DNA from: Candidatus Omnitrophota bacterium
GTDB taxonomy: Bacteria > Omnitrophota > Gorgyraeia > Velamenicoccales > JABMQK01
Direction of reading: 5' to 3'
Length of the DNA stretch: 64,000 nucleotides
NCBI GenBank assembly: GCA_028711115.1
Contig: JAQTSV010000001.1
Location: forward strand, 1,111,005 to 1,175,004
Made by a program: the position numbers and the translations under genes. Below, piece after piece: positions 18,335-60,712 of the stretch (the first letter of the stretch is position 1; the number at the start of each line of letters is the position of its first letter). The notes beneath the pieces are model-generated. The model saw nothing but the letters and a program-made list of their open reading frames with translations. It ran no database searches and was not told where the DNA came from.

Positions 18335-18336
18335 AT

Positions 18337-39472: not shown

Positions 39473-41053
39473 CTATCTATTCAGTTTATGTCTCATTTTA
39501 AAACCATATGTCAAAATCTTAGACACTTTTGTTTTCTCGATACCAAATACTGGAGGGAAAAAAAGGATAAAACATCCAACCATTAATGAATACAAGAAAC
39601 CTGTTGTTAAAAAACCTACGATAATATTTGTATGTAACCCTAGTAAACTATTCACGATATAATTGGCAAATATAGATAGAGTTAAAAGACAACCAACGCA
39701 AAGTATCTGATGTACACAATATTTCCAAAAAGACAATTTAAGGAATTTCGAAATAAAATAAAACATAACATTTACACTGATAAACTGTAAAAATACAGCT
39801 TTAATCGCAAGTCCATTTGCGCCTAAGCTCATCCCAAATAAATTCTTTGGTGCGATTAGAAGATACGTAACGGGCAACCCAAATAGCATAAACACTACTC
39901 CTATATTTCTATAAAGCCTGGTCTGGTCTGTAGCATAAAACACAGAGCCGCTTAATTGACCATAGGTTTGGTGCAATGGGTAAAAAGCCATAATTATAAC
40001 AGCCAAAGTAGCCCCACTGAACTTTCCTCCTCCCATAATAAGAACAACCCTGTCTGCATTTACAGCTATAAAACAAGCGATAAAAGCGGTTATTGAATAT
40101 AATAAAGGCATATGGGTTCTGAAGATATTTGAAATTAGATTTAAATCTTTATTGTTATGGGCAATGGAGAATTCTCGCAAAATTAAAGGGGTCATTGCAC
40201 TTGTAAACAAAATACAAATAGTGCTTATTTGATAAGACAAGCCAAAGAATCCCTGTTGTATACTCCCTCCGAAAAACTGCAATAACCATATATCAAAAAT
40301 ATTTACAAACATTCCAACTAAACCATATAAAAAAAGCGGATGGGAATATTTATAGAATTCCTTCGTGTATTCTTTAATTTCTTTAAATTTCAGTATGCAA
40401 GTTTGCGAAATAGGGAGAATAGAATGTTTCATTATTTTTAAGAATAAAAGTATTAATAAAAATAACATGAAATAATTGTAAAAGAAAAAATTTATAAGGT
40501 TTAACTTTTGATAAACAAATAGTATGGCAATTATTATTAAACCCAATATTTTCTGTGACATCTTGCTTATTTCTGCAACGACTGTCACGCCATAAGCATC
40601 TGTCATTTGGCTTAATATATTTACTAACCAAGTAAATATCCCCAGGCAAAGAGCTAAATAAATAACAGACAATTTTTGGACAGGCCAGAGTTTAGTATAT
40701 AGACCAGTTGAATGCGAAACTATAACAAAAGCTGCAACCAATAACATGACAACTCCCATAAAATAGAAATAAAACAATACTAATTTTGACTCTTTAGGTC
40801 TCTGGGAAAGTTTTGTATAAAACCCTATTGATGTCCCCATATTAAAAAAACCTATGACTTCATTAAAAAAATTTGACAAAAAATTAAAATCACCATAATT
40901 TTGAGGACCGAGACCACGCGTTATTATTGACTGCATAACCAAATTTATAGGAAAACCTAAAATATTAGAAAAAAACTTATAAAAATATCTTTTTCTCAAA
41001 GAGTCTCCCTTGCTATTATTTCCTGTCGGCATCAAAGGATTTATTTGATTCAT
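39473..41053 (-). CDS. Oligosaccharide/polysaccharide flippase (Wzx-like, MOP superfamily).
   Basis: 526 aa, ~12-14 TM helices, typical Wzx-like N-terminal region. Confidence 0.6.
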   Translation of the reverse strand: MNQINPLMPTGNNSKGDSLRKRYFYKFFSNILGFPINLVMQSIITRGLGPQNYGDFNFLSNFFNEVIGFFNMGTSIGFYTKLSQRPKESKLVLFYFYFMGVVMLLVAAFVIVSHSTGLYTKLWPVQKLSVIYLALCLGIFTWLVNILSQMTDAYGVTVVAEISKMSQKILGLIIIAILFVYQKLNLINFFFYNYFMLFLLILLFLKIMKHSILPISQTCILKFKEIKEYTKEFYKYSHPLFLYGLVGMFVNIFDIWLLQFFGGSIQQGFFGLSYQISTICILFTSAMTPLILREFSIAHNNKDLNLISNIFRTHMPLLYSITAFIACFIAVNADRVVLIMGGGKFSGATLAVIIMAFYPLHQTYGQLSGSVFYATDQTRLYRNIGVVFMLFGLPVTYLLIAPKNLFGMSLGANGLAIKAVFLQFISVNVMFYFISKFLKLSFWKYCVHQILCVGCLLTLSIFANYIVNSLLGLHTNIIVGFLTTGFLYSLMVGCFILFFPPVFGIEKTKVSKILTYGFKMRHKLNR

Positions 41054-42813
41054 AGTAACTGCCTAAATTCTTTTGCCCATATATTTAACCAGTCCTTGCT
41101 CGCAAAAGCATAACGTTCACAAAAGTTATTCCGAGCATTTTGAATATCCGAATTCAACCACCATTTCATAGGATTATCATAAATTTCATTTACTTTTCTT
41201 GCGGCATCCTCGGGGCTCCTATAAAGCATATGGGCTTTTCTTAATAATTCAAAATATTCTTCTGCCTCTCTCCTCATTAAATATGTTTCGTGATCCCAGT
41301 ATAAAACACAAGGGACATTTATGGCTAGAGCCTCAAGAAAGGAAGTTTGTGGATTATCTATAACTACTAGATTCACCTTCTGCATATAATCAATTAGTTT
41401 ACCCTTTAACAAAAATTTTATGTTCGGGCATATCTCTTTTATATACTCTTTTTCATTCCAACCCAAACTAGAAATATAAGGACGATACAATACATTCTGC
41501 TTCACTTCTTTTCTTAAAGTCCGGAAGAATATCTTTTTATATTCGAAATAATTTTGCATATCATCTGGCTGCAGAGAAGTATTTAATCTGTAACCATAAG
41601 GAGATACAAAAGTACCTGCAAATAAAATTTTATTAATTTTAAATGAATGCGTATCTTTTAAATTAGAGAGATATATGCTTGGTAGCGGTTTAGCGTTATT
41701 GTCTTCTTTTAAACTCCACCCCCAAGTGTAGAAAATATTTTTATCTAAAGCTAGCTGTTCGTTAGGCTCAGATAAAGAGAATCCATATCCGCCACCATGC
41801 TGAAACTCAATAAGACGAGAACCTTTTATGGCTGCTTCTGCTGCATAAAACTTGAATCTTTCATTAAAGTACCATCCAACTGCAGAACCTATAATCTTTC
41901 CAATTCCTATATTCTTGACACTATCTCGATATAAATTGTAATTTTCCACATACGATAAGGGAATGACTCTGGGGATTAATTTATAAAGCAAAAACAAGAA
42001 TTTATCAGAATTATTACTCGGTTCTAATTTTAACTTTTCCCTAAAAGCAGAAGAATAGTTCTTGTTTAAGATAGTCATTTTTAGTGGATAGAAATTTCTG
42101 AAACTAACTACCTTAAGCCCTAATTCCCATTTAAGTAAAAGAATATGCATACACTTTAAATGGTACATATCTGTTAAAAAGATATCGCTTTTGAAAAACA
42201 AATCTAAAATTTTTATTAGATTATAAAAACTCTTAACTTTCCAATCGTATTTTACGTTATCAGTACATATTTTATATTCAAAGTTAATCCTATCTTTTAT
42301 AATAATTCTTTGTGGACACAAATAATGAACAATAAGACTGAATAATTTCAAGTTATAATAATCTTCTTTTAACTTATTGTGAGAATCCCTTGTATCAAAA
42401 GATGGTATTTCGCATTGTTCTTCTGGCAGGGCATGCGTATAAAAATCTGAGAACATTTCAATAGAATTCTCTATCCTTTTATATCTATCGTAAAGAATAC
42501 CGATGAAATGCAGAAGCCAATCGCCTACGAGCACACGCCAATACTCTGCTGGATAGGAAACCTGATGGGCTAAATTTAGCCTTTCAGACAACTCGGGGAG
42601 CAATTTCTCATAAATGCTATAGCAATAATCAGCGCCTTCCTTTATTTTATAAGCTGGTTTCCACGGGGAAGGCACTAAAAGATACTCTCTATTTTTAACT
42701 AGAGCTCTATTTTTCTGTTCAGTTAAACACCACGGGCCCAAAAGCAAAAGCTTTTTATCTAAATCCCAAATCTCTGAAATTCCACTAGTAGCTAAATAAG
42801 TTTTTGACACCAA
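41050..42813 (-). CDS. Hypothetical protein, possibly a LIC12162-type transferase as seen in O-antigen/nonulosonate loci.
   Basis: 587 aa, no canonical motif recognised. Position and size resemble that family. Unverified. Confidence 0.3.
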   Translation of the reverse strand: MVSKTYLATSGISEIWDLDKKLLLLGPWCLTEQKNRALVKNREYLLVPSPWKPAYKIKEGADYCYSIYEKLLPELSERLNLAHQVSYPAEYWRVLVGDWLLHFIGILYDRYKRIENSIEMFSDFYTHALPEEQCEIPSFDTRDSHNKLKEDYYNLKLFSLIVHYLCPQRIIIKDRINFEYKICTDNVKYDWKVKSFYNLIKILDLFFKSDIFLTDMYHLKCMHILLLKWELGLKVVSFRNFYPLKMTILNKNYSSAFREKLKLEPSNNSDKFLFLLYKLIPRVIPLSYVENYNLYRDSVKNIGIGKIIGSAVGWYFNERFKFYAAEAAIKGSRLIEFQHGGGYGFSLSEPNEQLALDKNIFYTWGWSLKEDNNAKPLPSIYLSNLKDTHSFKINKILFAGTFVSPYGYRLNTSLQPDDMQNYFEYKKIFFRTLRKEVKQNVLYRPYISSLGWNEKEYIKEICPNIKFLLKGKLIDYMQKVNLVVIDNPQTSFLEALAINVPCVLYWDHETYLMRREAEEYFELLRKAHMLYRSPEDAARKVNEIYDNPMKWWLNSDIQNARNNFCERYAFASKDWLNIWAKEFRQLL

Positions 42814-42849: not shown

Positions 42850-43854
42850 TTAATTGATTATGGCTAAAATCCTTTTTAAACCAGAACCATCAACTAAATT
42901 TCGGCTGGATTTAAAGATAGGCTCCCGTTTACTATAGTTGTTTTTATAATAATCTAAAGCCTTAATTATCTTAGCTGGGCTAATGACATCATCCCAATGC
43001 CCCACATAAAAACTTCCTGTAAGTTTTGCATATTCAGCTGAAACCACAATTTCATGATCAATAGATGGTACAATAATGACAGGCTTTCCTAAATATGCAC
43101 ACTCATACAATGTGCGTCCAGCAGCAGTGATAACAACATCCTGAAGACTTAATAGTTTTAAAAAATTAAGGGGGTTTTTATGGACTTTTATATTTCTCCT
43201 AGATTTAACTATATCATAAACTTCTTTATGCCCAGTAAAAGACGGCCCTAATATGATATGGGCCGTAAAATCCATGCTATCTTTTAATACCGAGCGCATA
43301 ATTTTTAGTGTTAATCCTGCCGGGTCTGAACCTCCCATTGTTATCATCACATCCTTAACTTTATGGCGTATTGGAATAATTTTGATGGGTTTAGCTATTA
43401 TAAAATACTTAGTTCCTAAATATAGCCTAGTTTTATTAATCAAATGAGGGTATTTAGTAAAATCTCCTACAAAAGAATCATTAATTAATATATCTGGGCA
43501 ACCGGCACATTTGCCTAATATATCAAAAACTATTGTCTGGATTTGTCTTGCATGGGCATATTCCAACAAATCAGTGTAGGGATTAGAATAAAGATCAAAG
43601 ATTATCTTCTCCGGAGAATATTTCGCGCATAAATTAATCAAAGAAGCATCGCTATCATCATTAATATCAATAAGCTCTACATTAATACCGCGATTTTTAA
43701 CAAAATCTACTCCATCTGGGTAATTTTTCATAACAAAAATAATTTTGTATTTACTAGACAAAACATTTGCTAATATTAATGAACGTCTAATATGCCCCGT
43801 TGAAATTCCCCAGACCTTGCCTCCGTCAACTCGGAAAAGAATAACCTTTTTCAT
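42850..43854 (-). CDS. PseG-like UDP-sugar hydrolase / GT28 C-terminal family protein (nonulosonic acid pathway).
   Basis: N-terminus FRVDGGKVWGISTGHIRRSLILANVL matches the PseG FRADSSxxIGxGHxxR pattern. Confidence 0.6.
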   Translation of the reverse strand: MKKVILFRVDGGKVWGISTGHIRRSLILANVLSSKYKIIFVMKNYPDGVDFVKNRGINVELIDINDDSDASLINLCAKYSPEKIIFDLYSNPYTDLLEYAHARQIQTIVFDILGKCAGCPDILINDSFVGDFTKYPHLINKTRLYLGTKYFIIAKPIKIIPIRHKVKDVMITMGGSDPAGLTLKIMRSVLKDSMDFTAHIILGPSFTGHKEVYDIVKSRRNIKVHKNPLNFLKLLSLQDVVITAAGRTLYECAYLGKPVIIVPSIDHEIVVSAEYAKLTGSFYVGHWDDVISPAKIIKALDYYKNNYSKREPIFKSSRNLVDGSGLKRILAIIN

Positions 43855-43882
43855 ATTCAGCTAAATTTTAATTCTGCCAATC

Positions 43883-45466
43883 TTAAACAGAATAATTCCT
43901 TGCGTCTTTTTTACAGATATTACTAAGAATCTTTATGTAATAACCAACCTTTGCATAATCATTCCAAAATCCATCATTTACAAAAACACATTCATCATAA
44001 ATTTTATATAAAGCGGAGGTCAATCTTTTACCCAATTTATCCTTCCTCTCTGAACGTTCAATGTACTTATAGAAAACTTTCGGCATTTTTATATATAATA
44101 CAAACCTCTCTATCAAAGCAATAAGTTCTTTTTTAGAAATATCGGGCAAGTCTAAATTTGGAATACCATCTTTAAACACCACTCCACGGTTCTTGTTTAA
44201 AAAACCATTTTTTATTGCTATCTCTCTGAGCTCTGTTTCTTCGAGAGGAGAAAAGAATCCTACGTTAGGATAACGAACCTGGGCCTTTCTGTTTAATTCA
44301 ATAGTTTCCATAACAGTTTTTCTGCTTTCAAAAGGTATACCCAACATATTGAAAGATGAAGTACGAATCCCTGCATCATTTAACATCTTAGTCGATTCGA
44401 TTATTTCTTTTTTACTATCTAGACGCTTAAGAATTTTCTTTCTCATTATCGTATTTCCCGTTTCGATTCCTAACGTTACGCTAACACAGTTCATTTTCTT
44501 TAATAACCTTATTTTCTCCAAATTTATATTATGTGCATTAGCCATTATGGAGAAAGGAATATTAATCTCTTCGCTGTACTTCCTGGTCAAATCATCTAAA
44601 TATTTTATGGATTTAAGACAAAAATCTTCGTCGTGGAATCTGAAGAAGTTTATTTGCCATTTATTTACTAAATATTTCAACTCTTTAATAACTCTATCCA
44701 CGCTATAACATCTCAAAAACGGACCGGCATTCTTACCATAAATTTTACGATACGAAGCGTTGATACAATAAGTACAATAATAAGGACAACCCCAATATAT
44801 CATATAATCTCCAAACCTATACATTCTTCCATCGTAAGGATTAATAAATTGACGTTTATCAAAAATTGTCCAATCAAGAAAAGGTAAAGAATCCAATTTT
44901 TGGTAATAAGGCCTTACCGGCATTCTGACTATTCTTCCATTGTCTCTAAATGAAATATTCTCAATTCTCCTGGGATCATCTCCTTTGGCTATACATTCAA
45001 CAAAATCCGGCAAAAACTCTATTCCTTCACCGATACATAAGAAATCAATATATTTGCAAGCAAAGACTTTTTCTGGTGCCATCGTTGCGGCTTTATTCCC
45101 CCAAACAACTATAGTCTGGGCATTCCATTTTTTTACAATTTTTGATATCTCAAATCCAATGGAAATCTCATCTGATAATGCACTAACAGCACAAATATCT
45201 GGTTTAAATTCATTCAATTTCTTAATTAAGGTTTCTTCTAGATTGATTTTTTTCTTTTTCACATCGAAAGCACTAAAGTCAGCTTCTTTAAAAATTCTGA
45301 TTTTAGTTCGAAAACTTGAATTATCTTCAAAACCAAAATCAAAAAAGGTAGTATCAAATAAGTCAACATCGTATCCCTTGCTCTTTAAGATTGCGGATAA
45401 AAGAGCTATACTTATTGGCTTACGTCCAAATTGATCTTTGTTGGGCCAAACAAACAAAATTTTCAT
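43883..45466 (-). CDS. B12-binding-domain radical SAM protein (class B radical SAM).
   Basis: N-terminal Rossmann-like B12-binding region (KILFVWPN...) followed by CPYYCTYC. Confidence 0.8.
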   Translation of the reverse strand: MKILFVWPNKDQFGRKPISIALLSAILKSKGYDVDLFDTTFFDFGFEDNSSFRTKIRIFKEADFSAFDVKKKKINLEETLIKKLNEFKPDICAVSALSDEISIGFEISKIVKKWNAQTIVVWGNKAATMAPEKVFACKYIDFLCIGEGIEFLPDFVECIAKGDDPRRIENISFRDNGRIVRMPVRPYYQKLDSLPFLDWTIFDKRQFINPYDGRMYRFGDYMIYWGCPYYCTYCINASYRKIYGKNAGPFLRCYSVDRVIKELKYLVNKWQINFFRFHDEDFCLKSIKYLDDLTRKYSEEINIPFSIMANAHNINLEKIRLLKKMNCVSVTLGIETGNTIMRKKILKRLDSKKEIIESTKMLNDAGIRTSSFNMLGIPFESRKTVMETIELNRKAQVRYPNVGFFSPLEETELREIAIKNGFLNKNRGVVFKDGIPNLDLPDISKKELIALIERFVLYIKMPKVFYKYIERSERKDKLGKRLTSALYKIYDECVFVNDGFWNDYAKVGYYIKILSNICKKDARNYSV

Positions 45467-45621
45467 TTCCGAGAAACCTCCCTTATTTATAAATTAAAAA
45501 CAATATTGTATCTTGCGGTTCTTCAGCGGTGTATATCTGCTTCCTTGCTTTATTCTATTTCAATTATACAGGTTTTTATAGATGTCTCTGCCAAGAGATG
45601 GGTTTGCAGTAAAATAGTGGA

Positions 45622-46644
45622 TTAATATAAATCGTCCATAGTAACTAAATTCATTTTAGCGATATCACACTTTAACTTTCTTCCGACCATATCCGACAAA
45701 TTTGTTACTTTACTTTTCTCCGATGAAGGCGCGAAAAAAACAACATCCTCATTTTTTAAAACAACCCCCGCTTTAAGATCGTGTGCCGCATATATTCCTC
45801 TACGTTTATAGCGGCGCGGCTCTGTTTCTTCAAATCTAGGTGCTTTTTTCCCATCGCCTATGGCTTTTTCTAAGTCTCGTATATTCTTAATCAACATTCT
45901 TAAGTCTGCAGGCTCTATTGAACATCTTTGATCTGGACCTGGAAGAGATTTGTCGATGGTAAAATGTTTTTCGATAACATTTGCACCCAAAGCTGCAGCA
46001 ACTAAAGGAATATGTATGCCTTCGCTATGATCTGAATATCCTACAGGGCAATTTAATGCTCTTTTCATGGTTTGAATGGCTAAAAGATTACACGCTTGCG
46101 GAGGAGTTGGATAGCAAGAAGTACAATGTAAAACTATATAATCGTTATTTCCCATTTCCTCAACCCATCTTACAGCGCGAATCACCTCTTCCATGGTACT
46201 CATCCCCGAAGAAAGAATAATTGGTTTTTTTAGAGAAGCTGCCTTTTGTATTAACTCTTTATAATTAAAATCCATGGATGCAATTTTTATAAGATGGGGG
46301 TTCTGTTTCTTTATAAATTCCAAGCTGCGGAATTCTTCAGGCGTCGAAAAAAGATTAATATTTTTTTGTTTGGCAAAATCCCAAATTTCCTGCTCTTTCT
46401 CATGGGGGATTTCTGAATGAAGATTAGATTGAAAATCAGGGTGAGATGGATGCAAGAATTCCTTCGTGATAAAAGTCTGTATTTTAACTGCATCAACGCC
46501 GACTTCCCAGGCAGCGGCAATCATTTCTTTTGCAAGCGAAACTTCGCCATTATGGTTTATTCCTATTTCCGCTATCATATAAATGGGATGCTCATCACCT
46601 ATTATTTTATTATTTACATGAATAAGTTTCACTATCACCTCCAA
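45622..46644 (-). CDS. Nonulosonic acid synthase, NeuB/PseI/LegI family.
   Basis: IAEIGINHNG...VDAVKIQTF N-terminal TIM-barrel motifs and a C-terminal SAF domain. Confidence 0.85.
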   Translation of the reverse strand: MEVIVKLIHVNNKIIGDEHPIYMIAEIGINHNGEVSLAKEMIAAAWEVGVDAVKIQTFITKEFLHPSHPDFQSNLHSEIPHEKEQEIWDFAKQKNINLFSTPEEFRSLEFIKKQNPHLIKIASMDFNYKELIQKAASLKKPIILSSGMSTMEEVIRAVRWVEEMGNNDYIVLHCTSCYPTPPQACNLLAIQTMKRALNCPVGYSDHSEGIHIPLVAAALGANVIEKHFTIDKSLPGPDQRCSIEPADLRMLIKNIRDLEKAIGDGKKAPRFEETEPRRYKRRGIYAAHDLKAGVVLKNEDVVFFAPSSEKSKVTNLSDMVGRKLKCDIAKMNLVTMDDLY

Positions 46645-46715
46645 AAAGTTTAAAAATATATTATTTTTACAATACCGGTATAAATTAAGTAGACTTTTAG
46701 GAATAAAAGTTCTTG

Positions 46716-47747
46716 CTATTTATTATCTTCCCCCTCCGGCTTATTACCAATCTGCTCAATAGAAGGCCTATGACATCGTTTGCAACATGGAATAGATAAT
46801 CTTTTCTTACTCAACTGTGTTTGGCGATATCGCTCCATCGCTTTACCCAGCCAAACTTCTTTTATGGCTTGCTTTCTTAAATCCCCTATCTTTGTATACA
46901 AATTCCAATCTGAAATGCATTGAGGAATTTCTCCATTCCAAGTGATAGTGATACGTTGCCAAGGATACTGACATATAAAATCTTTGTCCTGCGGGACTTC
47001 CCTTAAAGAATAGTCATTTTCAGGATCGAAATTTATTTTATCTGTAAAATCTTTAAAGTAATCATAAAATGCCTTGGGATTCTCCTTAATGTATGACCAT
47101 AGCGCTTGGATCTTTAATAAAGGTAATCCTTTTCCAATACTATTCTTCAAACTATAAAAATTTTTAAGTTTTTCGGTAATTTCCTTAAAAGTTATAGGCT
47201 TTCTAAGCCTGTTATAATATTTTTCGAACCCATCAACCGAGACTGTTATATAATCTAGTCCTGCCTTAATTAATCCTTCTGCCAGTTTACCTTTCAGCAG
47301 TAAACCGTTTGTAATAAAAGACACCTCTTTGATCCCTTTATTTTTAGCATATTCTACCATTTTAATTAAATATGGATTAAGAGTGGATTCTCCTCTCCAG
47401 CTCAAACGTATCGAATATAAATTATTCTTAACGCATTCATCAATCCCTTTTTTATACAATTTGAAATCCATGTCACCATAATTTTTTTTATCAATATATG
47501 GCCTAAAACACATGGGGCATTTCAGATTGCAACGAAAACTGGCTTCAAAATCCACATGAAGAGGAAAAGAAGCAACGTAGTGCCATTTAGGATAATTAAA
47601 CCATTGGAACCGGTTAACACAATAATCTTTAAAATACCACCGACGTTCTTCCCATAAACGTTCACGCTCAGAAGAATCAAGGGAAAATTGATGATGATTT
47701 ATTCTCATCTCTTTTTGCTCAAGAGTTAAATTCATGATATTCGCCAC
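46716..47747 (-). CDS. Radical SAM/SPASM-domain protein.
   Basis: CNLKCPMCFRP radical SAM motif. C-terminal CQYPWQRITITWNGEIPQCISDW...CCKRCHRP Cys cluster. Confidence 0.8.
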   Translation of the reverse strand: MANIMNLTLEQKEMRINHHQFSLDSSERERLWEERRWYFKDYCVNRFQWFNYPKWHYVASFPLHVDFEASFRCNLKCPMCFRPYIDKKNYGDMDFKLYKKGIDECVKNNLYSIRLSWRGESTLNPYLIKMVEYAKNKGIKEVSFITNGLLLKGKLAEGLIKAGLDYITVSVDGFEKYYNRLRKPITFKEITEKLKNFYSLKNSIGKGLPLLKIQALWSYIKENPKAFYDYFKDFTDKINFDPENDYSLREVPQDKDFICQYPWQRITITWNGEIPQCISDWNLYTKIGDLRKQAIKEVWLGKAMERYRQTQLSKKRLSIPCCKRCHRPSIEQIGNKPEGEDNK

Positions 47748-47753
47748 CTTTTT

Positions 47754-48464
47754 TTAATTTGTTAGTACTGTAATTAATTCCTGAAAGGAAAAGTTAAATG
47801 GTAACTTTTTCTCTTTAAAGAAACGACGAGCCTGCTCTAAATCTTGAGGAGTATCAATAGAAAGCTTAAAGCGAGAATAATCAAACTCTAAATCATGATT
47901 ATAGTAACGAATTTTGTATTGAGAATCTCGGTTCAAAAAATAGTAATTAATATGTTCCCGTTCCTTTTGGTCAGTAGAATTTTTCGCTGCTTCTTCTAAA
48001 ATTCTCCGGCTAAAAATCTCTACATCCAAACCTTCTGGGAAATTGGTATATTGCCTATTGCTCAGATAATCTATTTCTTCCTGATTGTTCAAGTAATACT
48101 TTATCATTGCATCAATAATTTCAGGAATAACCAAAGGAGAATCAGATGTTATGCGGATGATTATACCTACATCAAAATATGCGCACGTACGGCAAAATCG
48201 ATCAAGACAATCTTCTTCGCTTCCGCGGTAGAATAGATAATTATATCTTTTTAACCATTCTTCCAGTATGTCATCTTTAGGATTAGTTGTGGTGGCGACA
48301 ATAATTTTATCTACACACCTGCATTTTGATAAACGTTTAAGAAGGTAACTTAAAACAGTTTCGCCAACCATTAACTCTTCTAATATTTTACCGGGAAAGC
48401 GGGTAGAACCCATACGAGCCTGAACGATAACAGCTATATTATTTTTAGTATCGTTTAAAGACAT
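47754..48464 (-). CDS. Acylneuraminate-type cytidylyltransferase (CTP_transf_3; NeuA/PseF/SpsF-like).
   Basis: IAVIVQARMGSTRFPGKIL N-terminal motif. Confidence 0.75.
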   Translation of the reverse strand: MSLNDTKNNIAVIVQARMGSTRFPGKILEELMVGETVLSYLLKRLSKCRCVDKIIVATTTNPKDDILEEWLKRYNYLFYRGSEEDCLDRFCRTCAYFDVGIIIRITSDSPLVIPEIIDAMIKYYLNNQEEIDYLSNRQYTNFPEGLDVEIFSRRILEEAAKNSTDQKEREHINYYFLNRDSQYKIRYYNHDLEFDYSRFKLSIDTPQDLEQARRFFKEKKLPFNFSFQELITVLTN

Positions 48465-49740
48465 CCACCGCTAATTTGCCCTGCAATAAAGATGGCAAAT
48501 CTCCTCTGTCTAATGCCTGCCGAATAATACTAAAAACCTGGGAAGCGATACCAATCGTGTAGTCAACATCTTTTTTTGTATGTGAGAAAGATACAAAATG
48601 CCCGTATCCCAGGAATACACCATTGAGTAAACATTCTTGCCTAAAAAGCGTCTCTATCATTTTACCCGAAACGCCTCTCATATCCTTAAAGACCAGGAAG
48701 GTTTTATGAGGTAAGCCTTCACACTTTGCATCAATTTTATATCTTGCAATAGCTTCATTTAATCCATTTTTTAACCGTTGTCCAAGAGCCAAGATGTAAT
48801 CGTTAACTTTCCTTTTTCTTAAAATTTCTATTGTTTTAATAGAGGCTGTTATAGATAACAAATCCCCGCCAAATGTAGAGGAAATAAAAACCTTGTTTTC
48901 AACAGCATTCATAATTTCTTTTTTGCCAACAAGAACAGATATAGGATAGCCATTAGCCATCGCTTTGCCAAAAACACTGAGGTCAGGCATAACAGAAAAA
49001 TATGATTGAGCACCCCCCAAGCTTAATCTAAAACCTGTAATAACCTCATCAAATATAAGTAACGCTTGGTTTTTTCTAGCCAGCTTGGCTATTTTGCTGA
49101 GGAAATTATCCTTTGGCGCATACATACCCACTGGTTCTAAAATTACGGCTGCAACTTTACCTTTATTTTGGCTGAAAATTCTCTCCAATGAATTCAAATC
49201 ATTATATTTAAATTCAAAAATTAACTTTTTTAAAGCAGCGGGGATGCCGGCATCCCTAACTGTTCTCGTAATTGTCCAATCGTGCCACCCATGATATCCA
49301 CAAACCGCCACTATCTCTCTACCTGTATAAGCACGCGCCACCCTCACAGCAGCAGACATTGCTTCTGAACCCGTCTTCAAAATCTTAACCTTTTCTGCTG
49401 AAGGGATAATATCGCATAATATTTCAGAAAGTTCTAGCTCTAGCCTATTTGATAAACTGTATAAAAACCCCCTGGACATCTGTCTTTTGACAGCAGAATC
49501 AACTTCATCATACGCATAGCCCAATATTATGGGACCCAATGCTAAAGGATAGTCAATATAGCGATTGCCATCACAATCCCAAAAGTAAGCCCCTTTTGCT
49601 CTCTCTGCAAAAATAGGACATGCCCCTAGTGTAATATATAGAGGAGATTTAGAAAAAGTCGAAACTCCATTTAAAAGTAGAGAATTTGCTTTTTCCCATA
49701 ATATATGCGATTGTTTATATCTCCTGTTATTAATAGTCAT
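48445..49740 (-). CDS. Class III aminotransferase (glutamate-1-semialdehyde aminomutase-like).
   Basis: 431 aa. PLP fold with the conserved lysine region (FGKAMANGYP). Confidence 0.8.
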   Translation of the reverse strand: MTINNRRYKQSHILWEKANSLLLNGVSTFSKSPLYITLGACPIFAERAKGAYFWDCDGNRYIDYPLALGPIILGYAYDEVDSAVKRQMSRGFLYSLSNRLELELSEILCDIIPSAEKVKILKTGSEAMSAAVRVARAYTGREIVAVCGYHGWHDWTITRTVRDAGIPAALKKLIFEFKYNDLNSLERIFSQNKGKVAAVILEPVGMYAPKDNFLSKIAKLARKNQALLIFDEVITGFRLSLGGAQSYFSVMPDLSVFGKAMANGYPISVLVGKKEIMNAVENKVFISSTFGGDLLSITASIKTIEILRKRKVNDYILALGQRLKNGLNEAIARYKIDAKCEGLPHKTFLVFKDMRGVSGKMIETLFRQECLLNGVFLGYGHFVSFSHTKKDVDYTIGIASQVFSIIRQALDRGDLPSLLQGKLAVDVFKRY

Positions 49741-49747
49741 TATAAAC

Positions 49748-50752
49748 CTATAGATAAAATTCTTTTCTTTGCAAAAGCCAATCAGTTAAATCGCCAAAAG
49801 GAACCCAGGCTACGCAATTTTTGCAGGGGGGACACTTGTCATATTTCTGTTCTAGATGGGATCTGCGGGTCTCTTTTACTTCATGAGAATTCCATATTTG
49901 ATGGAGTGTCTGCTTATTAACATCGCCTACTTTTGTCTCGGTATTCCAATCCACTGTACAAAAAGTAACTTCTCCATTCCAATTTACTGCCAAGGCATAC
50001 CACATTATCGCACAAGGATATCTCATCGAAGATGTTTCATCGCTTATCTTAAGACTTTCTATCGCCCCACACCAATTATGAATACCTGTAACCTGAACCA
50101 TATCAGCCGTATCTTTCCATTTATCAATAAATTCTTCAATTTCTTCCTTCGAAATTCCCTCAAACTCCATAATCTTTACTCGAAGAAAAGGTTGCTTTAA
50201 AGCTAGCTTAGCGCGTCTTTTAAAAAAATTTAAAACTTGTTTCTCAACTCTTTCTAAAAGATCTGCTCCCTTGTGTTTTTTATATGTTTCTGGCCTTGCA
50301 GCATCAAGACTAACAGTGATATCATCAATGCCGGAATCCAGTAATTCATCAATAGTATCATTAGTCCAACAAAGAGCATTGGTATTGACATGTATCGTCT
50401 TAGCGACTTGCATCTTCTTTGCATATCGAATCATATCCATAAACCGCGGATGTAAGAATGGTTCTCCATCTTTATGCAAATTTAGCATAATCAACTTATT
50501 ATAATGAGAGGCTTCATCAATAATGCGTGTATATAAATTCCAATCGATAAATCCTACTTTTTTATTTGCTCTCTCTCTGGGGCAATAGAAACATTTAAGA
50601 TTACAGGCATTGGTAGGTTCGATGTTTAGAATATTGGGGAAATCTGTGTTGACAACTCGTTTTATTGTAGAAGGCCTAAGACAAGTCAGAGTACCTTTTA
50701 TATAATCTTCATTCAAAAGTTGATAATAGTTATTTGTCGGGCCTCTACCCAT
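49748..50752 (-). CDS. Radical SAM/SPASM-domain protein, paralog of 46716-47747.
   Basis: CNLKCFYCPRE motif. C-terminal CAIMWYALAVNWNGEVTFCTVDWN...CPPCKNC. Confidence 0.8.
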   Translation of the reverse strand: MGRGPTNNYYQLLNEDYIKGTLTCLRPSTIKRVVNTDFPNILNIEPTNACNLKCFYCPRERANKKVGFIDWNLYTRIIDEASHYNKLIMLNLHKDGEPFLHPRFMDMIRYAKKMQVAKTIHVNTNALCWTNDTIDELLDSGIDDITVSLDAARPETYKKHKGADLLERVEKQVLNFFKRRAKLALKQPFLRVKIMEFEGISKEEIEEFIDKWKDTADMVQVTGIHNWCGAIESLKISDETSSMRYPCAIMWYALAVNWNGEVTFCTVDWNTETKVGDVNKQTLHQIWNSHEVKETRRSHLEQKYDKCPPCKNCVAWVPFGDLTDWLLQRKEFYL

Positions 50753-50754
50753 CT

Positions 50755-52464
50755 TTATCTTGCAGGCTGTTTAGACTTTACAACACGATAATTGCCGATA
50801 TAAAGTTCGTGTATACCTGTACCAAAGAAAGTGCGGATAGCATCATTTGGAGTGCAAACAATAGGTTCGTCGTTATCGTTAAAAGAAGTATTCAAAATCA
50901 AGGCGACACCTGTAATTTTACGAAATTCGTCTATTAACTTCCAGTAGCGATGGTTGATATCTTTATTAACAGTCTGCAATCTCGCTGTGCCATCCTTATG
51001 TACAACAGCTGGTATTATTGCCCGCTTCTCCTCCCTTACAGGATATACCATTTGCATAAAAGAACTGGGAAATTCTGTTGTAAAATAATCCTTTTGGAAC
51101 TCTTCCATAACAGAAGGTGCAAAAGGACGATACCACTCACGGTGTTTTATTAATCGGTTAATTTTCTCTTTCATACCTGGATCACGCGCATCAGCTAAAA
51201 TTGAACGGTTTCCTAAAGCACGTTGTCCAAATTCCATCCTACCCTGAAACCAAGCGATAACTTTATTTTCTGATATCGACTTTGCAGCCTCTTTTTCTGG
51301 ATTTTCTAAACATTCATAAAAGACAAGCGAATCGTCAAGGGCTTCTTTTATTTCTGTGTCCGAAAAACCTGGCCCCCAATAATCGTGTTCCATAACAAAA
51401 CTACGCTTATTACGTAAAATCTGATTCCAATAATAGAAACAAGCACCTAATGAACAACCGGCGTCATCTGCGCTTGGCTGTACCCAAACTTTGGTAAAAG
51501 GCGTTTCCGAAAGAATGCGGCCATTCATCTTACTATTCATTGCCACACCGCCAGCTAAACACAAAGTATTAAGCTTAGTCTTTTCTGCAAGATAAACACA
51601 CATATCTAAGGCAATGTCTTCGACTCGCTTCTGGAAACTGGCAGCGATATTAATATGCCTTTTCGTTAGTTCTTCATTCGGGTAACGCTCCGAACCAAAG
51701 GTCTCAATAAATTTGTCGGAATAACGTCGGGGACTCCAGATATAATAAGTGAAAAAATCTAAATCAAAACGCAATTCCCCCTTCTTCTTGTCAAAATTAA
51801 TTATCTTGGCAAACTGATCATAATATTCTGGTTCTCCATAAGCAGCCAATCCCATAATTTTCCATTCATCGCTATTGGTCCGATATCCTAAGTACTGGGT
51901 AATAGCCGCATAAACTTGTCCCATTGAATGTGGAAACATGGTCTTTCCTACAGAATCCAAATTATTCCCTTCTCCTATAAAAAATTGATGGGTAATATCG
52001 TCACCATAGGCATCTATTGTAAAAACAGCTGCTTTCTCATAAGGAGATACAAAAAATGCGCTGGCTGCATGCGAATAATGATGAGGAATAAAATGTATAT
52101 TCAATTCACCTTTAAGAAATTCTATCCGTTCGTCAATCCGCGTAATTCGTTTATTACTTTTATCCCCACCTATATGACGGAGAAGATTATTGGGGATATA
52201 ATGAAGAAAATGTTTGTGGTAGCGCACTGCTGCCATTGTATCCTGTGGCTCAATCTCATGCCCGGGATTCCATGCAAAAACGATATGTTCTATATCCTTT
52301 AATGTCACACCGGCGACACCCAAACAATAATCCACAGCTTCCATAGGATATGAGTCAGAAAACTTAACTCTGTTAAATCTCTCTTCTCTCGCAGCAGCTA
52401 TTAATTTGCCTTCTTTAATAATAGCGGCTGCTGAAGTGGAATCATTCAATCCTAATATATACAT
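50755..52464 (-). CDS. Carbamoyltransferase (NodU/CmcH family).
   Basis: MYILGLNDSTSAAAIIKEGKLIAAAREERFNR N-terminal ASKHA fold, plus the C-terminal carbamoyltransferase domain. Confidence 0.85.
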   Translation of the reverse strand: MYILGLNDSTSAAAIIKEGKLIAAAREERFNRVKFSDSYPMEAVDYCLGVAGVTLKDIEHIVFAWNPGHEIEPQDTMAAVRYHKHFLHYIPNNLLRHIGGDKSNKRITRIDERIEFLKGELNIHFIPHHYSHAASAFFVSPYEKAAVFTIDAYGDDITHQFFIGEGNNLDSVGKTMFPHSMGQVYAAITQYLGYRTNSDEWKIMGLAAYGEPEYYDQFAKIINFDKKKGELRFDLDFFTYYIWSPRRYSDKFIETFGSERYPNEELTKRHINIAASFQKRVEDIALDMCVYLAEKTKLNTLCLAGGVAMNSKMNGRILSETPFTKVWVQPSADDAGCSLGACFYYWNQILRNKRSFVMEHDYWGPGFSDTEIKEALDDSLVFYECLENPEKEAAKSISENKVIAWFQGRMEFGQRALGNRSILADARDPGMKEKINRLIKHREWYRPFAPSVMEEFQKDYFTTEFPSSFMQMVYPVREEKRAIIPAVVHKDGTARLQTVNKDINHRYWKLIDEFRKITGVALILNTSFNDNDEPIVCTPNDAIRTFFGTGIHELYIGNYRVVKSKQPAR

Positions 52465-52485
52465 ACGGTTATCGACCTCTCTTTT

Positions 52486-53205
52486 TTATGTTTTATTCAT
52501 CAATATTTTAAGACTATTTTTGCCGTGATTAAATAATAAATCCAGTGTAGACATATTTGGTACAAACCCCTCGCATAATTGACTATAAGCAGGCGATTTA
52601 TAATCCATCCATTGAATTTTAATATTGTTATCTTTAAAATCTTTTAAGTTAAGATAATTTCTCCCTGATATACCGCAGAGATAGACCTTAGCTTTATTTA
52701 AAATGCATAACTGTAAGATAAGATCTGAGCCTTTATAACTATCGACATCAAATTCAGAAGAATAAACCATTGGAGTAGATATTCCGATATGTCTTCTGAA
52801 ATAACTGATTATTGCCACGTTCAATTCTAACAAATAATTATATTCTTTTACATTAATCAACGAATACAGATCTTCATAATATTCTTTAAAATAGGCAGCC
52901 TTACTATAAAAATGCTGTATTTTCTTTAATAATTTATCTTTCCATCGTTGTGTATTATCTATTTCCACATCACAAATGCTTTGCGTATATCTTCCTTTTG
53001 TTTTTACAGGAACGCTAATATAAGAAATTTCTTTTTTTGGAGAAACGATCCGATTCCGATTTTCAAAATATCTTTTTTTGAATTGTACATGATCAAAAAC
53101 AACGTATTTGTCCGCTAATGCCATTTTATAAAAAAATCCTAGCCAGGGCAGAAATTCAGGTTGATGAATCGCAACTTGCATAAAAAATATTATTATTACT
53201 TCCAA
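52486..53205 (-). CDS. WbqC-family protein.
   Basis: MQVAIHQPEFLPWLGFFYKM signature. The true start may be the internal Met at ~53178. Confidence 0.7.
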   Translation of the reverse strand: MEVIIIFFMQVAIHQPEFLPWLGFFYKMALADKYVVFDHVQFKKRYFENRNRIVSPKKEISYISVPVKTKGRYTQSICDVEIDNTQRWKDKLLKKIQHFYSKAAYFKEYYEDLYSLINVKEYNYLLELNVAIISYFRRHIGISTPMVYSSEFDVDSYKGSDLILQLCILNKAKVYLCGISGRNYLNLKDFKDNNIKIQWMDYKSPAYSQLCEGFVPNMSTLDLLFNHGKNSLKILMNKT

Positions 53206-53825
53206 AACATTTTTGCAATACGAAATGTTTCTGCATAGGAAACATTTACCTTGGCACCGTCGGAACTATTTTGTTTCTTTACAAAGTCTATCCATGAATA
53301 ATTCACATTTTTCATCTCGGATTCAAATAACCTAAGAAGCTCTACCTTCTTATCTATATACTCAGAAATATTCACGTAATAATTATCTTCTTGTGAATTA
53401 CCCATAATATACCAATTGCTACGGTATAATAAAACCTCGTCACATTTGCGGCATGCACGCATAGATACATATCCGACGACGGCATGATCAGCATGAAAAT
53501 CATTGGGTTGATGAGTATATACACGGTCGGGATTAATCCGACTTACTATCTCTTCTATTTCTAAAACGAGTTTTTCTGTTGCAACAAGAGTAATTGGCTC
53601 TTTATCACAACAAATCAATTTTGCCCCAAGAAATTTAGCGCTTTTTTCACCTTCGCTCTTGGCTTCTTCCGCTTTTCTATAAAGCCCTTTTGTGGCGCTC
53701 GTGTATCCTGAATTTGTAACAACAATAATATAAATCTCATCTCCCTTATCTCTATGTTTAAGGAGACTCCCTCCGCAACCTAATTCTACGTCATCAAAAT
53801 GAGCACCTATTGCTAAAATTTTCAT
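53196..53825 (-). CDS. PIG-L/LmbE-family N-acetylglucosaminyl deacetylase.
   Basis: KILAIGAHFDDVELGCGGSLLKH motif. Confidence 0.8.
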   Translation of the reverse strand: MKILAIGAHFDDVELGCGGSLLKHRDKGDEIYIIVVTNSGYTSATKGLYRKAEEAKSEGEKSAKFLGAKLICCDKEPITLVATEKLVLEIEEIVSRINPDRVYTHQPNDFHADHAVVGYVSMRACRKCDEVLLYRSNWYIMGNSQEDNYYVNISEYIDKKVELLRLFESEMKNVNYSWIDFVKKQNSSDGAKVNVSYAETFRIAKMFWK

Positions 53826-54183
53826 ATTATCCTCGCAATTTTAAACACAATTGTAAACCCGTTCCCCGCTCTAAAGGGCGGGGTTTCAGACTCCTGACAT
53901 AATCTAGCTACTTTTGTTCTTCGATGTATTTTCTGATAGCTTTCTTATCAATTTGCCCAGCTGTTTATATCTATGTTAATTTTTAAAAATCATCTATTAT
54001 TATAAATAGCAACTAGGACAATCCTTACTTCTAACTTAATTATTTACAACACATTACACCAATTAAGGATTAACTTTCTGATGTAAGCACAAGTATTATA
54101 AATAAGTTCTACTATAACTTCAAGAAAAACTTCAATTAATGAGCAACTTATATTCTTTAATTAATGAAGAGCTGAAAGAATTA

Positions 54184-60707: not shown

Positions 60708-60712
60708 TGGTA

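Follow-up and report, generated by a model that had tools for sequence, protein, structure and literature searches.

The part of the window (the whole analysed stretch of 64,000 nucleotides from a Candidatus Omnitrophota contig) between 38.5 and 53.8 kb is probably a horizontally mobile, self-contained cassette, predicted to make a CMP-activated, heavily N- and O-modified nonulosonic-acid-type sugar for a Wzx-exported surface glycan. Oxygen-sensitive radical enzymes are most likely used here to build an unusually modified sialic-acid-like surface sugar; in the literature searched, no tie between such enzymes and sialic-acid-like sugars was found. The genes follow each other in the order PIG-L, WbqC, carbamoyltransferase, radical SAM enzyme SPASM-B, class III aminotransferase (AT3), CTP_transf_3 cytidylyltransferase (CTP3), SPASM-A, a variable slot, NeuB and PseG-like, and the last is often followed by a LIC12162 transferase, Wzx and a methyltransferase. 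Ten ORFs were confirmed with the domains and at the coordinates given for them by the sequence-only reading; all lie on the minus strand and Pfam backs each domain call. The start of WbqC had to be moved from TTG at 53205, probably to Met at 53181 (231 aa, the database start).

The cassette was found in seven other genomes, with conserved order and 43-82% protein identity. Its hosts are Scalindua, Planctomycetota and Cytophagia MAGs, an unclassified bacterium, a sulfur symbiont, Methanospirillum and Methanoregula. The order PIG-L, WbqC, carbamoyltransferase, SPASM-B, AT3, CTP3, SPASM-A, NeuB, PseG-like is identical in five genomes (Methanospirillum lacunae, Scalindua japonica, the Planctomycetota MAG, the Cytophagia MAG and the unclassified bacterium). 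Variants lacking AT3 occur in Methanoregula and a gammaproteobacterial symbiont; AT3 and CTP3 are absent in two otherwise complete cassettes, where SPASM-B is kept. Seven phylogenetically distant genomes have the same genes in the same order, far more than chance grouping would give. The genes form a single syntenic cassette and no loose mixture, common to distant anaerobic bacteria and methanogenic archaea and almost unchanged between them. Even remoter SPASM-B homologs (42-52% identity) still neighbour NeuB, CTP_transf_3 and B12 radical SAMs. The sister locus L041 carries a formyltransferase in place of the carbamoyltransferase.

The sequence-only reading had recognised a pseudaminic or legionaminic acid (Pse/Leg) route. 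What stands of this is a nonulosonic-acid-type core of PseG-like hydrolase, NeuB-family synthase and CMP-sugar-type cytidylyltransferase; ortholog assignment against the Pse, Leg and Neu pathways missed all equivalog cut-offs (score/cut-off in bits: PseG 133.3/153.55, PseI 253/340, NeuB 303/400, PseF 17.7/205.7). Equivalents of PseB/LegB, PseC/LegC and PseH/LegH were found nowhere across the whole island. Thus, the pathway is not standard Pse or Leg. The PseG-like nucleotide-sugar hydrolase of GT28 fold (42850..43854, minus strand) is named after its match to NCBIfam TIGR03590 (133.3 bits), its Pfam match being DUF354 only. His21 of its G-x-G-H motif is invariant in eight orthologs of 43-60% identity. 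The ulosonic acid synthase (45622..46644, minus; NeuB 253.6 bits plus SAF) retains the catalytic and metal residues E25, K53, K129, Y186, H215 and H236, while Asp replaces E134 in the cassette copies. The best PDB match of the NeuB homolog was C. jejuni PseI (8h2c, E 1.6e-49); B. subtilis SpsE (1vli) matched with E 3e-45. Position 314 is Ala in 8/8 cassette copies, but Arg in 10/10 non-cassette homologs and in the N. meningitidis NeuB and C. jejuni PseI enzymes. In N. meningitidis NeuB, Arg314 is reported to touch the N-acetyl group. The pocket of the cassette synthase is altered by the loss of this substrate-contacting residue. CTP3 (47754..48464, minus; CTP_transf_3 105 bits) is a SpsF/KdsB-like cytidylyltransferase and putative CMP-sugar synthetase, with 6oew (2.5e-36) and then KdsB entries as PDB matches.

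SPASM-A (46716..47747, minus) and SPASM-B (49748..50752, minus) both match the Radical_SAM and SPASM families of Pfam, and their description as paralogs holds (29% identity over 279 aa, E 2e-36). Invariant cysteines are 43, 73/77/80, 105, 259, 277, 322 and 325 in SPASM-A, whose orthologs share 59-82% identity, and 24, 50/54/57, 247, 265, 310 and 313 in SPASM-B. SPASM-B is effectively Twitch-like with one auxiliary cluster. BtrN was the top PDB sequence match of both enzymes (E 4.7e-10 for SPASM-B). By Foldseek, SPASM-B matched BtrN with E 3.5e-13 and TMt 0.74, at about 17-18% identity in the structure alignment; the top rank went to the peptide-modifying SuiB, with BtrN essentially tied. This level ranking counts against the explanation preferred here. 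The enzyme also aligns with the C-terminal half of spiro-SPASM TIGR04321 (129 bits vs cut-off 250), and CTP3 matches the N-terminal half weakly (E 4.7e-5). Among the SPASM-B relatives, P0446 and P0492 each unite CTP_transf_3, radical SAM and SPASM domains in one polypeptide, where CTP_transf_3 barely exceeds its Pfam threshold (24.9 and 22.9 bits vs 22.6), and P0490 is a tandem double radical SAM-SPASM protein. Co-conservation with the sugar genes, together with relatives that are fused to a cytidylyltransferase domain, assigns the SPASM enzymes to the pathway. The proposed membership of the radical SAMs, the carbamoyltransferase, WbqC and PIG-L in the sugar pathway is borne out by the cross-genome synteny; in different phyla and in both domains the SPASM genes keep strict synteny with NeuB, and the objection that they are not co-conserved with the glycan genes clearly fails.

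The first gene of the cassette encodes a PIG-L/LmbE-type zinc de-N-acetylase (53196..53825, minus; Pfam PIG-L 72.8 bits), whose zinc motifs H9/D11/D12 and H111/D113/H114 are invariant in eight cassette orthologs of 64-75% identity. The WbqC-family protein (52486..53181 with the probable start, minus; Pfam WbqC 228.9 bits) gave no significant PDB fold match with its AF2 model (pLDDT 94). The next gene (50755..52464, minus) encodes a NodU/CmcH/TobZ-type carbamoyltransferase (Carbam_trans_N 208 bits, Carbam_trans_C 230 bits) with orthologs of 70-81% identity; it falls short of the NodU equivalog (172 vs 1000). NodU/TobZ-type enzymes are known as O-carbamoyltransferases, and N-carbamoylation by this enzyme is therefore speculative. 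AT3 (48445..49740, minus; Aminotran_3 181.6 bits) is a class III, GSA-aminomutase-like PLP aminotransferase with invariant Lys259, scoring 363 against PRK06209 (cut-off 486). It had been counted among the enzymes of the Pse/Leg route, where it is not canonical; closest are glutamate-semialdehyde aminomutases (best PDB match GSAM, 1.8e-65), and an aminoglycoside C-6' aminotransferase (3e-42) stands lower in the list. The variable slot is occupied in the window by an accessory B12-binding radical SAM (43883..45466, minus; B12-binding and Radical_SAM Pfam matches). No equivalog was reached by this protein, the top one being HpnJ with 112 bits. Its own family adjoins or is fused to NeuC-type Epimerase_2, CTP_transf_3 and NeuB. 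In other cassettes a version of about 25% identity is found or none, so that a C-methylated product, which the sequence-only reading had thought possible, depends on an enzyme which is no fixed member of the cassette.

A related late-step trio is known from B. subtilis, where the PseG-like, NeuB and SpsF enzymes lead to CMP-legionaminic acid from UDP-linked precursors (PMC7439481). The Sps system (SpsM, C, D, G, E, F) shares with the cassette the SpsG hydrolase, the SpsE synthase and the CTP_transf_3 cytidylyltransferase of SpsF type. In contrast, the SDR dehydratase SpsM, the DegT aminotransferase SpsC and the acetyltransferase SpsD are found only there, and radical SAM, carbamoyltransferase, WbqC, PIG-L and class III aminotransferase only in the cassette. 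To the Pse pathway of Campylobacter and Helicobacter (PseB, C, H, G, I, F) the likeness is in the PseG-like active-site His and the NeuB-family synthase; PseB, PseC and PseH are lacking, the cytidylyltransferase is of SpsF/KdsB type instead of PseF, and the synthase has Ala for Arg314. Spiro-SPASM TIGR04321 resembles SPASM-B in its radical SAM/SPASM half and, weakly, CTP3 in its N-terminal half, but in the cassette these are separate genes with the aminotransferase in between, and SPASM-B does not reach the family cut-off. To our knowledge, this family has no assigned function. Four enzyme families of 2-deoxystreptamine tailoring (BtrN, BtrD/NeoL, GenB/NeoB, TobZ) occur together in the cassette. 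By this analogy the cassette probably works like aminoglycoside tailoring, with a sugar being deacetylated, oxidised, transaminated and carbamoylated; the scaffold differs, being a PEP-derived ulosonic acid that is CMP-activated for a surface glycan, whereas aminoglycosides are built on a cyclitol pseudo-oligosaccharide. The aminoglycoside enzymes also share little sequence identity with those of the cassette, as the value for BtrN shows. In the Leg cluster of Kuenenia stuttgartiensis, a deacetylase and a formyltransferase correlate with CMP-nonulosonic acids (NulOs) bearing a free or formylated amine, and the modification takes place at the nucleotide-sugar level (10.64898/2026.04.20.719630). 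The combination of a deacetylase with an acyl- or formyl-type capping enzyme in the NulO cluster of an anaerobe is comparable, and a formyltransferase is present in L041, too; Kuenenia differs by canonical LegB/LegC/LegG-type genes, and radical SAM enzymes were not reported for it (10.64898/2026.04.20.719630).

From these comparisons the following route can be proposed, in which the listing of the steps between precursor supply and methylation implies no fixed sequence. A UDP-2-acetamido sugar would be supplied from outside the core cassette, as the SDR and DegT genes of sister loci suggest. PIG-L would strip the N-acetyl group, and WbqC and/or the carbamoyltransferase, the latter via a carbamoyl-adenylate like TobZ, could re-cap the freed position; in the sister cassette a formyltransferase may take this part. 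The free aldose would be released by the PseG-like hydrolase and condensed with PEP by the NeuB-type synthase lacking Arg314. SPASM-B, as a BtrN-like Twitch enzyme, may abstract a sugar hydrogen so that a hydroxyl is oxidised, and the adjacent class III aminotransferase may turn the carbonyl into an amine, following the logic of aminoglycoside tailoring. The absence of AT3 from two cassettes weakens an obligatory pairing of these two enzymes. A second radical step, epimerisation or dehydration, is conceivable for SPASM-A, and the radical steps could take place at or near CMP activation by the SpsF-like cytidylyltransferase. Strain-specific methyl groups would come from the B12 radical SAM and the SAM methyltransferases of the variable slot. 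Finally, the LIC12162 transferase is predicted to put the sugar on a lipid-linked glycan, which Wzx would flip.

A weak point of this proposal is the precursor: neither a 4,6-dehydratase nor a good DegT aminotransferase was found in the island of the window, and L003 and L035 have none within 10 kb of the cassette. This counts against our preferred explanation, since it leaves the hexose precursor without a source in the window's island. It also fits another route, which we regard as unlikely, in which the radical SAMs replace the missing early steps and the core cassette is fully autonomous, making the sugar de novo from UDP-GlcNAc by radical, NAD-independent chemistry. SPASM-B and AT3 would then perform C4 oxidation and amination of PseB/PseC type, and SPASM-A C5 epimerisation or 6-deoxygenation. 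BtrN-type dehydrogenases feed aminotransferases and NeoN, a related radical SAM, epimerises an aminosugar at C5; the hosts are anaerobes, and archaea and bacteria have passed on the cassette in one block. However, SDR and/or DegT genes are kept beside the cassette in five related loci (L002, L034, L036, L040, L041), SPASM-B is retained in cassettes without AT3, and its relatives are fused to a cytidylyltransferase, a late-step and not an early-step enzyme. Very improbable is an aminoglycoside- or nucleoside-like secondary-metabolite cluster with a diffusible, antibiotic-type aminosugar compound as product. Four families do match hallmark 2-deoxystreptamine enzymes, namely the BtrN-like radical SAM, the class III aminotransferase of C-6' type, the TobZ-type carbamoyltransferase and the PIG-L deacetylase, which we take to resemble BtrD/NeoL. 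Against this, neither inosose synthase nor resistance genes are present, an intact NeuB synthase and the PseG-like hydrolase are always found and the CMP-type cytidylyltransferase in most copies, and the cassette is surrounded by polysaccharide loci of Wzx/Wzy/Wzz or ABC-exporter type that include the LIC12162 transferase. Large glycan islands often interleave several pathways, and this one holds many other glycosyltransferases and radical SAMs. Nevertheless, an ordinary pseudaminic or legionaminic pathway, with the radical SAMs, carbamoyltransferase, WbqC and PIG-L as unrelated neighbours serving other island sugars, is extremely unlikely: it is contradicted by the strict synteny of all ten genes across distant phyla and two domains, by the Pse, Leg and Neu equivalog cut-offs, which no gene reached, by the loss of Arg314 specifically in cassette synthases and by the existing fusions of radical SAM and cytidylyltransferase.

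For the modified nonulosonic-acid-type sugar of our preferred reading, a surface glycan exported through Wzx is a likelier destination than the pilins. Downstream of the PseG-like gene lie, all on the minus strand, the LIC12162-family transferase as candidate for the activated sugar (41050..42813; TIGR04331 414 bits, cut-off 225), a Wzx-type flippase (39473..41053; weak Polysacc_synt match, 11 TM-like segments) and a SAM-dependent methyltransferase (38504..39436; Methyltransf_25 and Methyltransf_11). The transferase follows the PseG-like gene also in Scalindua L002 and in L036; in L036 a Wzx ortholog of 48% identity, annotated Polysacc_synt, takes the same position and is likewise followed by a methyltransferase. 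Companions of the cassette are the LIC12162 transferase and Wzx in the window and L036, Wzz/Wzy in Scalindua and an ABC exporter in Methanospirillum, and pilus genes were never seen beside it in the other host loci examined. A sugar that is synthesised by the proposed route and then used for O-glycosylation of the type IV pilins of the window is quite improbable, and pilin glycosylation has lost weight compared with the sequence-only reading. Eight pilin-like genes (7174-12795) and pilus/T2SS machinery (12895-19911) are present at 7-20 kb of the same window, and possible protein glycosyltransferases are a GT-C enzyme resembling PMT (60713-62107) and a 12-TM protein without assignment (27878-29473). 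The pilus locus had been called adjacent, but it is about 23 kb away from the cassette, past ExbBD, a TPR protein, UvrA (25027-27846) and further glycan genes that take up 15 kb; moreover, no Wzy_C/PglL/TfpO domain was detected within the window, and elsewhere the cassette accompanies Wzx, Wzy, Wzz or ABC exporters instead of pilus genes.

PIG-L is preceded by a gap of 505 nt, where a weak promoter-like site (TTGAAG-17-TATAAT, 10/12 positions; 54095..54123, minus) was the top site of the promoter scan; overall, such sites were not enriched over shuffles (72 vs 87). The glycan island as a whole extends from 27.9 to 63.3 kb. The GT9-like genes named in the sequence-only reading are present at 29509-30804 and 56244-57416, and three more radical SAMs of the island, missing from that reading, were located at 55310, 57410 and 59277.

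The genes proposed for the cassette (42850-53825) in the sequence-only reading were all found to be genuine minus-strand ORFs at their coordinates, and each domain call was borne out by Pfam. In the direction of transcription, PIG-L, WbqC and Carbam_trans_N/C proteins are followed by SPASM-B (49748-50752, Radical_SAM and SPASM), a class III aminotransferase (48445-49740, Aminotran_3), a cytidylyltransferase (47754-48464, CTP_transf_3), SPASM-A (46716-47747, Radical_SAM and SPASM), the NeuB-type synthase (45622-46644, NeuB and SAF), a B12 radical SAM (43883-45466, B12-binding and Radical_SAM) and a PseG-like/GT28 protein (42850-43854). The proposed paralogy of SPASM-A and SPASM-B was confirmed (29% identity, E 2e-36). 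In a scan of the window, promoter-like and terminator-like sites were not enriched over shuffles; operon boundaries were hence taken from gene spacing alone.

Many microbes carry nonulosonic acids (NulOs) as the terminal sugars of their surface glycans, where they influence how phages, predators and immune systems recognise the cell. To our knowledge, every route characterised so far (Neu, Leg, Pse and relatives) relies on NAD(P)- and PLP-dependent reactions of sugar nucleotides. The earlier view of the locus as a recognisable Pse/Leg-like route holds for the late steps. The PseG-like hydrolase, NeuB synthase and SpsF-type cytidylyltransferase resemble the late-step trio of the Pse pathway and match the late steps of the B. 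subtilis Sps legionaminic acid pathway (PMC7439481). The assignment to Pse or Leg did not hold, since every equivalog cut-off was missed and early-step genes are absent from the locus; a standard pathway was rejected on these grounds. The scores remained below the cut-offs for PseG (TIGR03590, 133.3 vs 153.55 bits), PseI (TIGR03586, 253.4 vs 340.25 bits), the PseF-type cytidylyltransferase (TIGR03584, 17.7 vs 205.7 bits) and NeuB_NnaB, which comprises Neu5Ac and legionaminic acid synthases (TIGR03569, 302.7 vs 399.65 bits). The window cytidylyltransferase is SpsF/KdsB-like. In the PseG-like protein the active-site His of the G-x-G-H motif is invariant, though the protein scores below the PseG cut-off.

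For the 2,4-diamino-6-deoxyhexose precursor, neither a 4,6-dehydratase nor a DegT aminotransferase nor an N-acetyltransferase was found at the locus. The search for a 4,6-dehydratase, which included SDR and DegT markers of sister loci (none of them with a hit in the window), gave no SDR between 27.9 and 64 kb, the last 0.7 kb of the window included. The sole DegT-like ORF (34041-35045, 334 aa) aligns with its 360-position profile over positions 50-187 only, and it reaches 46.7 bits with PseC (cut-off 423.5). Among the fetched comparison loci, SDR and/or DegT genes lie beside the cassette in L002 (Scalindua), L034, L036, L040 and L041 (Omnitrophota MAG), and none in L003 and L035. The best solved relatives of the class III aminotransferase are glutamate-semialdehyde aminomutases, with aminoglycoside C-6' aminotransferases lower in the list; it is not a Pse/Leg enzyme.

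The conservation of the cassette was examined by fetching the neighbourhoods of SPASM-B homologs, scanning one genome per GTDB species, and by running tblastn with every window protein against each of the fetched loci. SPASM-B homologs with 60-73% identity occur in Scalindua, Magnetominusculus, Riflebacteria, Methanospirillum and Methanocalculus. The full order PIG-L, WbqC, carbamoyltransferase, SPASM-B, class III aminotransferase, CTP_transf_3, SPASM-A, NeuB, PseG-like is kept in Scalindua japonica, a Planctomycetota MAG, a Cytophagia MAG, an unclassified bacterium and Methanospirillum lacunae; strain Ki8-1 of the latter is a cultured host with complete genome, in which the cassette occupies ~1.516-1.537 Mb of NZ_CP176093.1. 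A Methanoregula cassette has the same order without the class III aminotransferase, and that of a gammaproteobacterial symbiont is devoid of aminotransferase and cytidylyltransferase but carries a third SPASM gene. Even remoter SPASM-B homologs (42-52% identical) still adjoin NeuB, CTP_transf_3, GT2 and B12 radical SAM genes. Thus, the radical SAMs clearly belong with the NulO genes, as the sequence-only reading had supposed: the SPASM genes recur in cassette order across bacteria and archaea, the module being common to anaerobic bacteria and methanogens. In the fetched loci, cassette orthologs were 43-82% identical to the window proteins (tblastn). This far exceeds the expectation for vertical descent between bacteria and archaea and hence indicates that the cassette is horizontally mobile, and it suggests that surface-sugar traits often pass between the domains. 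In the sister cassette of the Omnitrophota MAG (L041, 4801-20999, JBAZUE010000001.1), DegT and SDR come first and Wzx last; its radical SAMs comprise three SPASM and two B12 enzymes, and a formyltransferase stands where the carbamoyltransferase would be.

The NeuB domain of the synthase (PF03102) was matched with 253.6 bits (cut-off 22.1). In an alignment with N. meningitidis NeuB and C. jejuni PseI (N. meningitidis numbering), the catalytic and metal-binding residues E25, K53, K129, Y186, H215 and H236 are kept in the window synthase and seven cassette orthologs; the E134 position is occupied by Asp. At the position of Arg314 in the SAF domain, which we take to contact the N-acetyl group of the substrate in N. 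meningitidis NeuB, all eight cassette synthases have Ala. Arg is found in both reference enzymes and in all 10 non-cassette NeuB homologs of the fetched loci. The zinc motifs of the PIG-L de-N-acetylase are invariant across cassette orthologs. Taken together, the replacement of Arg314 and the presence of a de-N-acetylase suggest that the aldose enters the condensation without a plain 2-acetamido group, and the formyltransferase of the sister cassette is consistent with this. A Leg cluster of Kuenenia with deacetylase and formyltransferase, associated with CMP-NulOs whose amines are free or formylated, is likewise consistent with a non-acetamido aldose (preprint 10.64898/2026.04.20.719630). The exchange of Arg314 for Ala offers a testable marker of specificity.

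The carbamoyltransferase consists of a Kae1-like N-terminal domain (Carbam_trans_N, 208.4 bits) and a YrdC-like C-terminal domain (Carbam_trans_C, 230.5 bits) of the NodU/CmcH/TobZ type; the NodU equivalog cut-off was not reached (172 vs 1000). For WbqC, no sequence match was obtained in the PDB. A Foldseek search of the PDB with its AF2 model (pLDDT 94) gave nothing significant, the best hits (E 0.15) being faint HUP/nucleotidyltransferase-like matches. The WbqC family is presumably linked to C. jejuni Cj1324/PtmG. For Cj1324, a role in acetimidoyl formation on legionaminic acid is described (preprint 10.64898/2026.04.20.719630).

The cassettes differ in what fills the slot between SPASM-A and the PseG-like gene: a B12 radical SAM, SAM methyltransferases or both are found in some genomes, and in others it is empty. 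With its counterparts in other cassettes, the window B12 radical SAM shares only ~25% identity. A B12 radical SAM as fixed cassette member was rejected on account of this low identity and of the cassettes without one; the window enzyme is an accessory decoration enzyme, not part of the core. It matched B12-binding with 35.0 bits and Radical_SAM with 76.4 bits; no equivalog was reached, the best being HpnJ (112 vs 577.6 bits). Besides enzymes that transfer methyl groups to carbon, the class B (cobalamin) radical SAM family includes non-methylating ones such as HpnJ, BchE and AprD4. In a Portnoybacteria MAG, a 67%-identical homolog follows CTP_transf_3, NeuB and a NeuC-type Epimerase_2, and another homolog, fused to an Epimerase_2 domain, adjoins CTP_transf_3. 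The enzyme's own family is thus tied to sialic-acid-like sugars. A Portnoybacteria-related contig (L037, 4143-17131) combines a classical NeuC, NeuB and CTP_transf_3 set with a close homolog of the window B12 radical SAM, followed by the phosphonate genes for PEP mutase, TPP decarboxylase and Fe-ADH and then by a second B12 radical SAM. The product of this locus may be a phosphonate-decorated or methylated sialic-acid-like sugar.

SPASM-A and SPASM-B exceed the cut-offs of the Radical_SAM and SPASM Pfam families, with a CxxxCxxC motif and a C-terminal Cys-rich auxiliary-cluster domain. Beyond CxxxCxxC, only four C-terminal Cys and one N-terminal Cys are invariant in the SPASM-B family. The four C-terminal Cys fit one auxiliary cluster (Twitch-like) and not the full seven-Cys SPASM motif. 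For both paralogs the best solved relative by sequence is BtrN (E 4.7e-10 and 5.6e-7), the radical SAM dehydrogenase of butirosin biosynthesis. BtrN was also matched by Foldseek (E 3.5e-13, TMt 0.74), with SuiB, MoaA, BlsE, DesII, anSME, SpeY and EpeE in the same range. The SPASM proteins are similar to BtrN-type radical SAM carbohydrate dehydrogenases, and may perform a two-electron oxidation of a sugar or cyclitol hydroxyl group.

Radical SAM enzymes of the cassette might tailor the sugar, or they might replace the missing early steps, and the latter is a live rival at a locus devoid of early-step genes. The order of reactions is addressed by gene fusions. An exhaustive phmmer search gave 796 clusters of SPASM-B relatives at E <= 1e-30. 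In two of these relatives (~505-524 aa), the rSAM-SPASM part is preceded by a fused CTP_transf_3 domain at the N-terminus, and another relative is a tandem double rSAM-SPASM. A similar architecture is known from spiro-SPASM (TIGR04321), a single polypeptide with cytidylyltransferase-like N-terminus and rSAM/SPASM domain; in the window the two halves are two genes, SPASM-B matching the C-terminal half (129.4 bits, cut-off 250) and the cytidylyltransferase weakly the N-terminal half (22.2 bits). The CTP_transf_3-rSAM fusions, a clue to where the radical steps act, argue for a functional coupling of the radical step to CMP activation. It would then stand late in the pathway, and tailoring is preferred over a replacement of early steps. 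For tailoring, a model is offered by the 2-deoxystreptamine aminoglycosides, for which the same four families are used (PIG-L deacetylase, Twitch radical SAM, class III sugar aminotransferase and TobZ-type carbamoyltransferase). Because of this coincidence, the same tailoring logic is proposed for an ulosonic acid. We infer every chemical step from the observed gene content, conservation, motifs and fusions: the sugar would be deacetylated by PIG-L and the freed position re-capped; radical SAM oxidation would be followed by transamination, and the sugar would be carbamoylated. After CMP activation, transfer by a LIC12162-family enzyme and export by Wzx would follow.

The destination of the product was sought in the genes accompanying the cassette. 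On its 3' side lie a LIC12162-family transferase (TIGR04331, 414.1 bits vs cut-off 225; profile positions 1-585 of 585 covered), a Wzx-like flippase and a methyltransferase. This trio also follows the cassette in comparison locus L036, and the LIC12162 transferase is also found downstream of the cassette in Scalindua. In a full-text literature search, LIC12162 appeared only as annotation next to neuABC in Herbaspirillum. A Leptospira NulO locus, suggested as source by the names spiro-SPASM and LIC12162, was rejected, as the cluster described in the literature follows a standard Leg/Neu route and radical SAMs go unmentioned there. Pilin glycosylation, considered plausible in the sequence-only reading because of an adjacent pilus locus, could proceed by block transfer, and pilin-like genes are indeed present in the window. 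However, they are not adjacent but ~23 kb off, beyond UvrA, and in the fetched loci of other hosts the cassette is accompanied by Wzx, Wzz/Wzy or an ABC exporter, never by pilus genes. Hence, block transfer to pilin is less favoured than a surface polysaccharide or lipid-linked glycan.

It is possible, if somewhat short of probable, that the product is an undescribed class of nonulosonic (or longer-chain ulosonic) acid, with the radical SAMs acting directly on the free or CMP-linked ulosonic acid. Its features might include, for example, an extra amino group introduced by radical oxidation and transamination, a carbamoyl or ureido cap replacing the 5-N-acetyl group and, where a B12 radical SAM is present, a C-methyl backbone extension. 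If true, this would be the first radical SAM chemistry in the biosynthesis of sialic-acid-type sugars. It would also provide a genetic entry point to the C10 CMP-ulosonic acids reported from Magnetospirillum, which are so far unexplained (preprint 10.64898/2026.04.20.719630), and the cassette may help to find the genes behind other such CMP-ulosonic acids that mass spectrometry has revealed. In the full-text literature search, covered for some records at the level of title and abstract, nothing was found that ties radical SAM enzymes to NulO biosynthesis or describes the cassette. What sets this NulO-type biosynthetic locus apart is that a conserved radical SAM module is an integral part of it and that its synthase is modified. 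The module of ten genes includes two Twitch/SPASM radical SAMs, a carbamoyltransferase, a synthase whose substrate pocket is rebuilt and, often, a B12 radical SAM; it points to an unexplored oxygen-sensitive branch of NulO chemistry.

The cassette lies in a low-GC glycan island (~27.9-63.3 kb, GC 0.32-0.35 vs 0.39 in the first 27.8 kb of the window), bordered by UvrA on one side and by a small basic protein and a gene fragment on the other. The island also contains three more radical SAMs, several GT2 and GT9, a PMT-like GT-C, the Wzx-like flippase and the LIC12162 transferase. In the gap just upstream of the cassette (~54183-54290, minus strand), an apparent C-terminal remnant of a group-1 glycosyltransferase was seen in a by-eye translation (...LLQNPQLRIQLGKNARKYAEDNLKE*), which suggests that an insertion or recombination event placed the cassette here. 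Two radical SAM paralogs (55310-56251 and 57410-58345, minus strand; 53% identical, weakly STM4011-like with ~71 bits) alternate with glycosyltransferases in the order GT2, rSAM, GT9, rSAM, GT2. At 59277-62107 (minus strand), a PMT/ArnT-like GT-C membrane glycosyltransferase and a GT2 have an HpnJ-like B12 radical SAM (380 bits vs cut-off 577.6) immediately upstream; the three may form a module for lipid-linked sugar modification. The small protein at the far island edge (~63.3-63.6 kb, minus strand) is lysine-rich with an internal tandem duplication (KVAKVG.K...GYLYFVDKKGDVSCAKM, twice).

At the UvrA-proximal edge, a 531-aa protein with ~12 TM-like segments and without Pfam or NCBIfam match (27878-29473, minus strand) could be a polymerase, ligase or GT-C-type enzyme. 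The neighbouring genes at 30862-35998 (minus strand) encode a DUF362 protein, a UbiA prenyltransferase, a FemAB-like GNAT, the short divergent DegT-like ORF and a polysaccharide deacetylase; this cluster is a separate, putative sugar or lipid-carrier module. Outside the island, a Memo-AMMECR1 fusion protein (5477-6982, minus strand) is unrelated to the cassette. Within the run of eight pilin-like genes (7174-12795), one protein (8807-10075, minus strand) combines an N-terminal methylation motif with a HINT/pretoxin-HINT (intein-like) domain.
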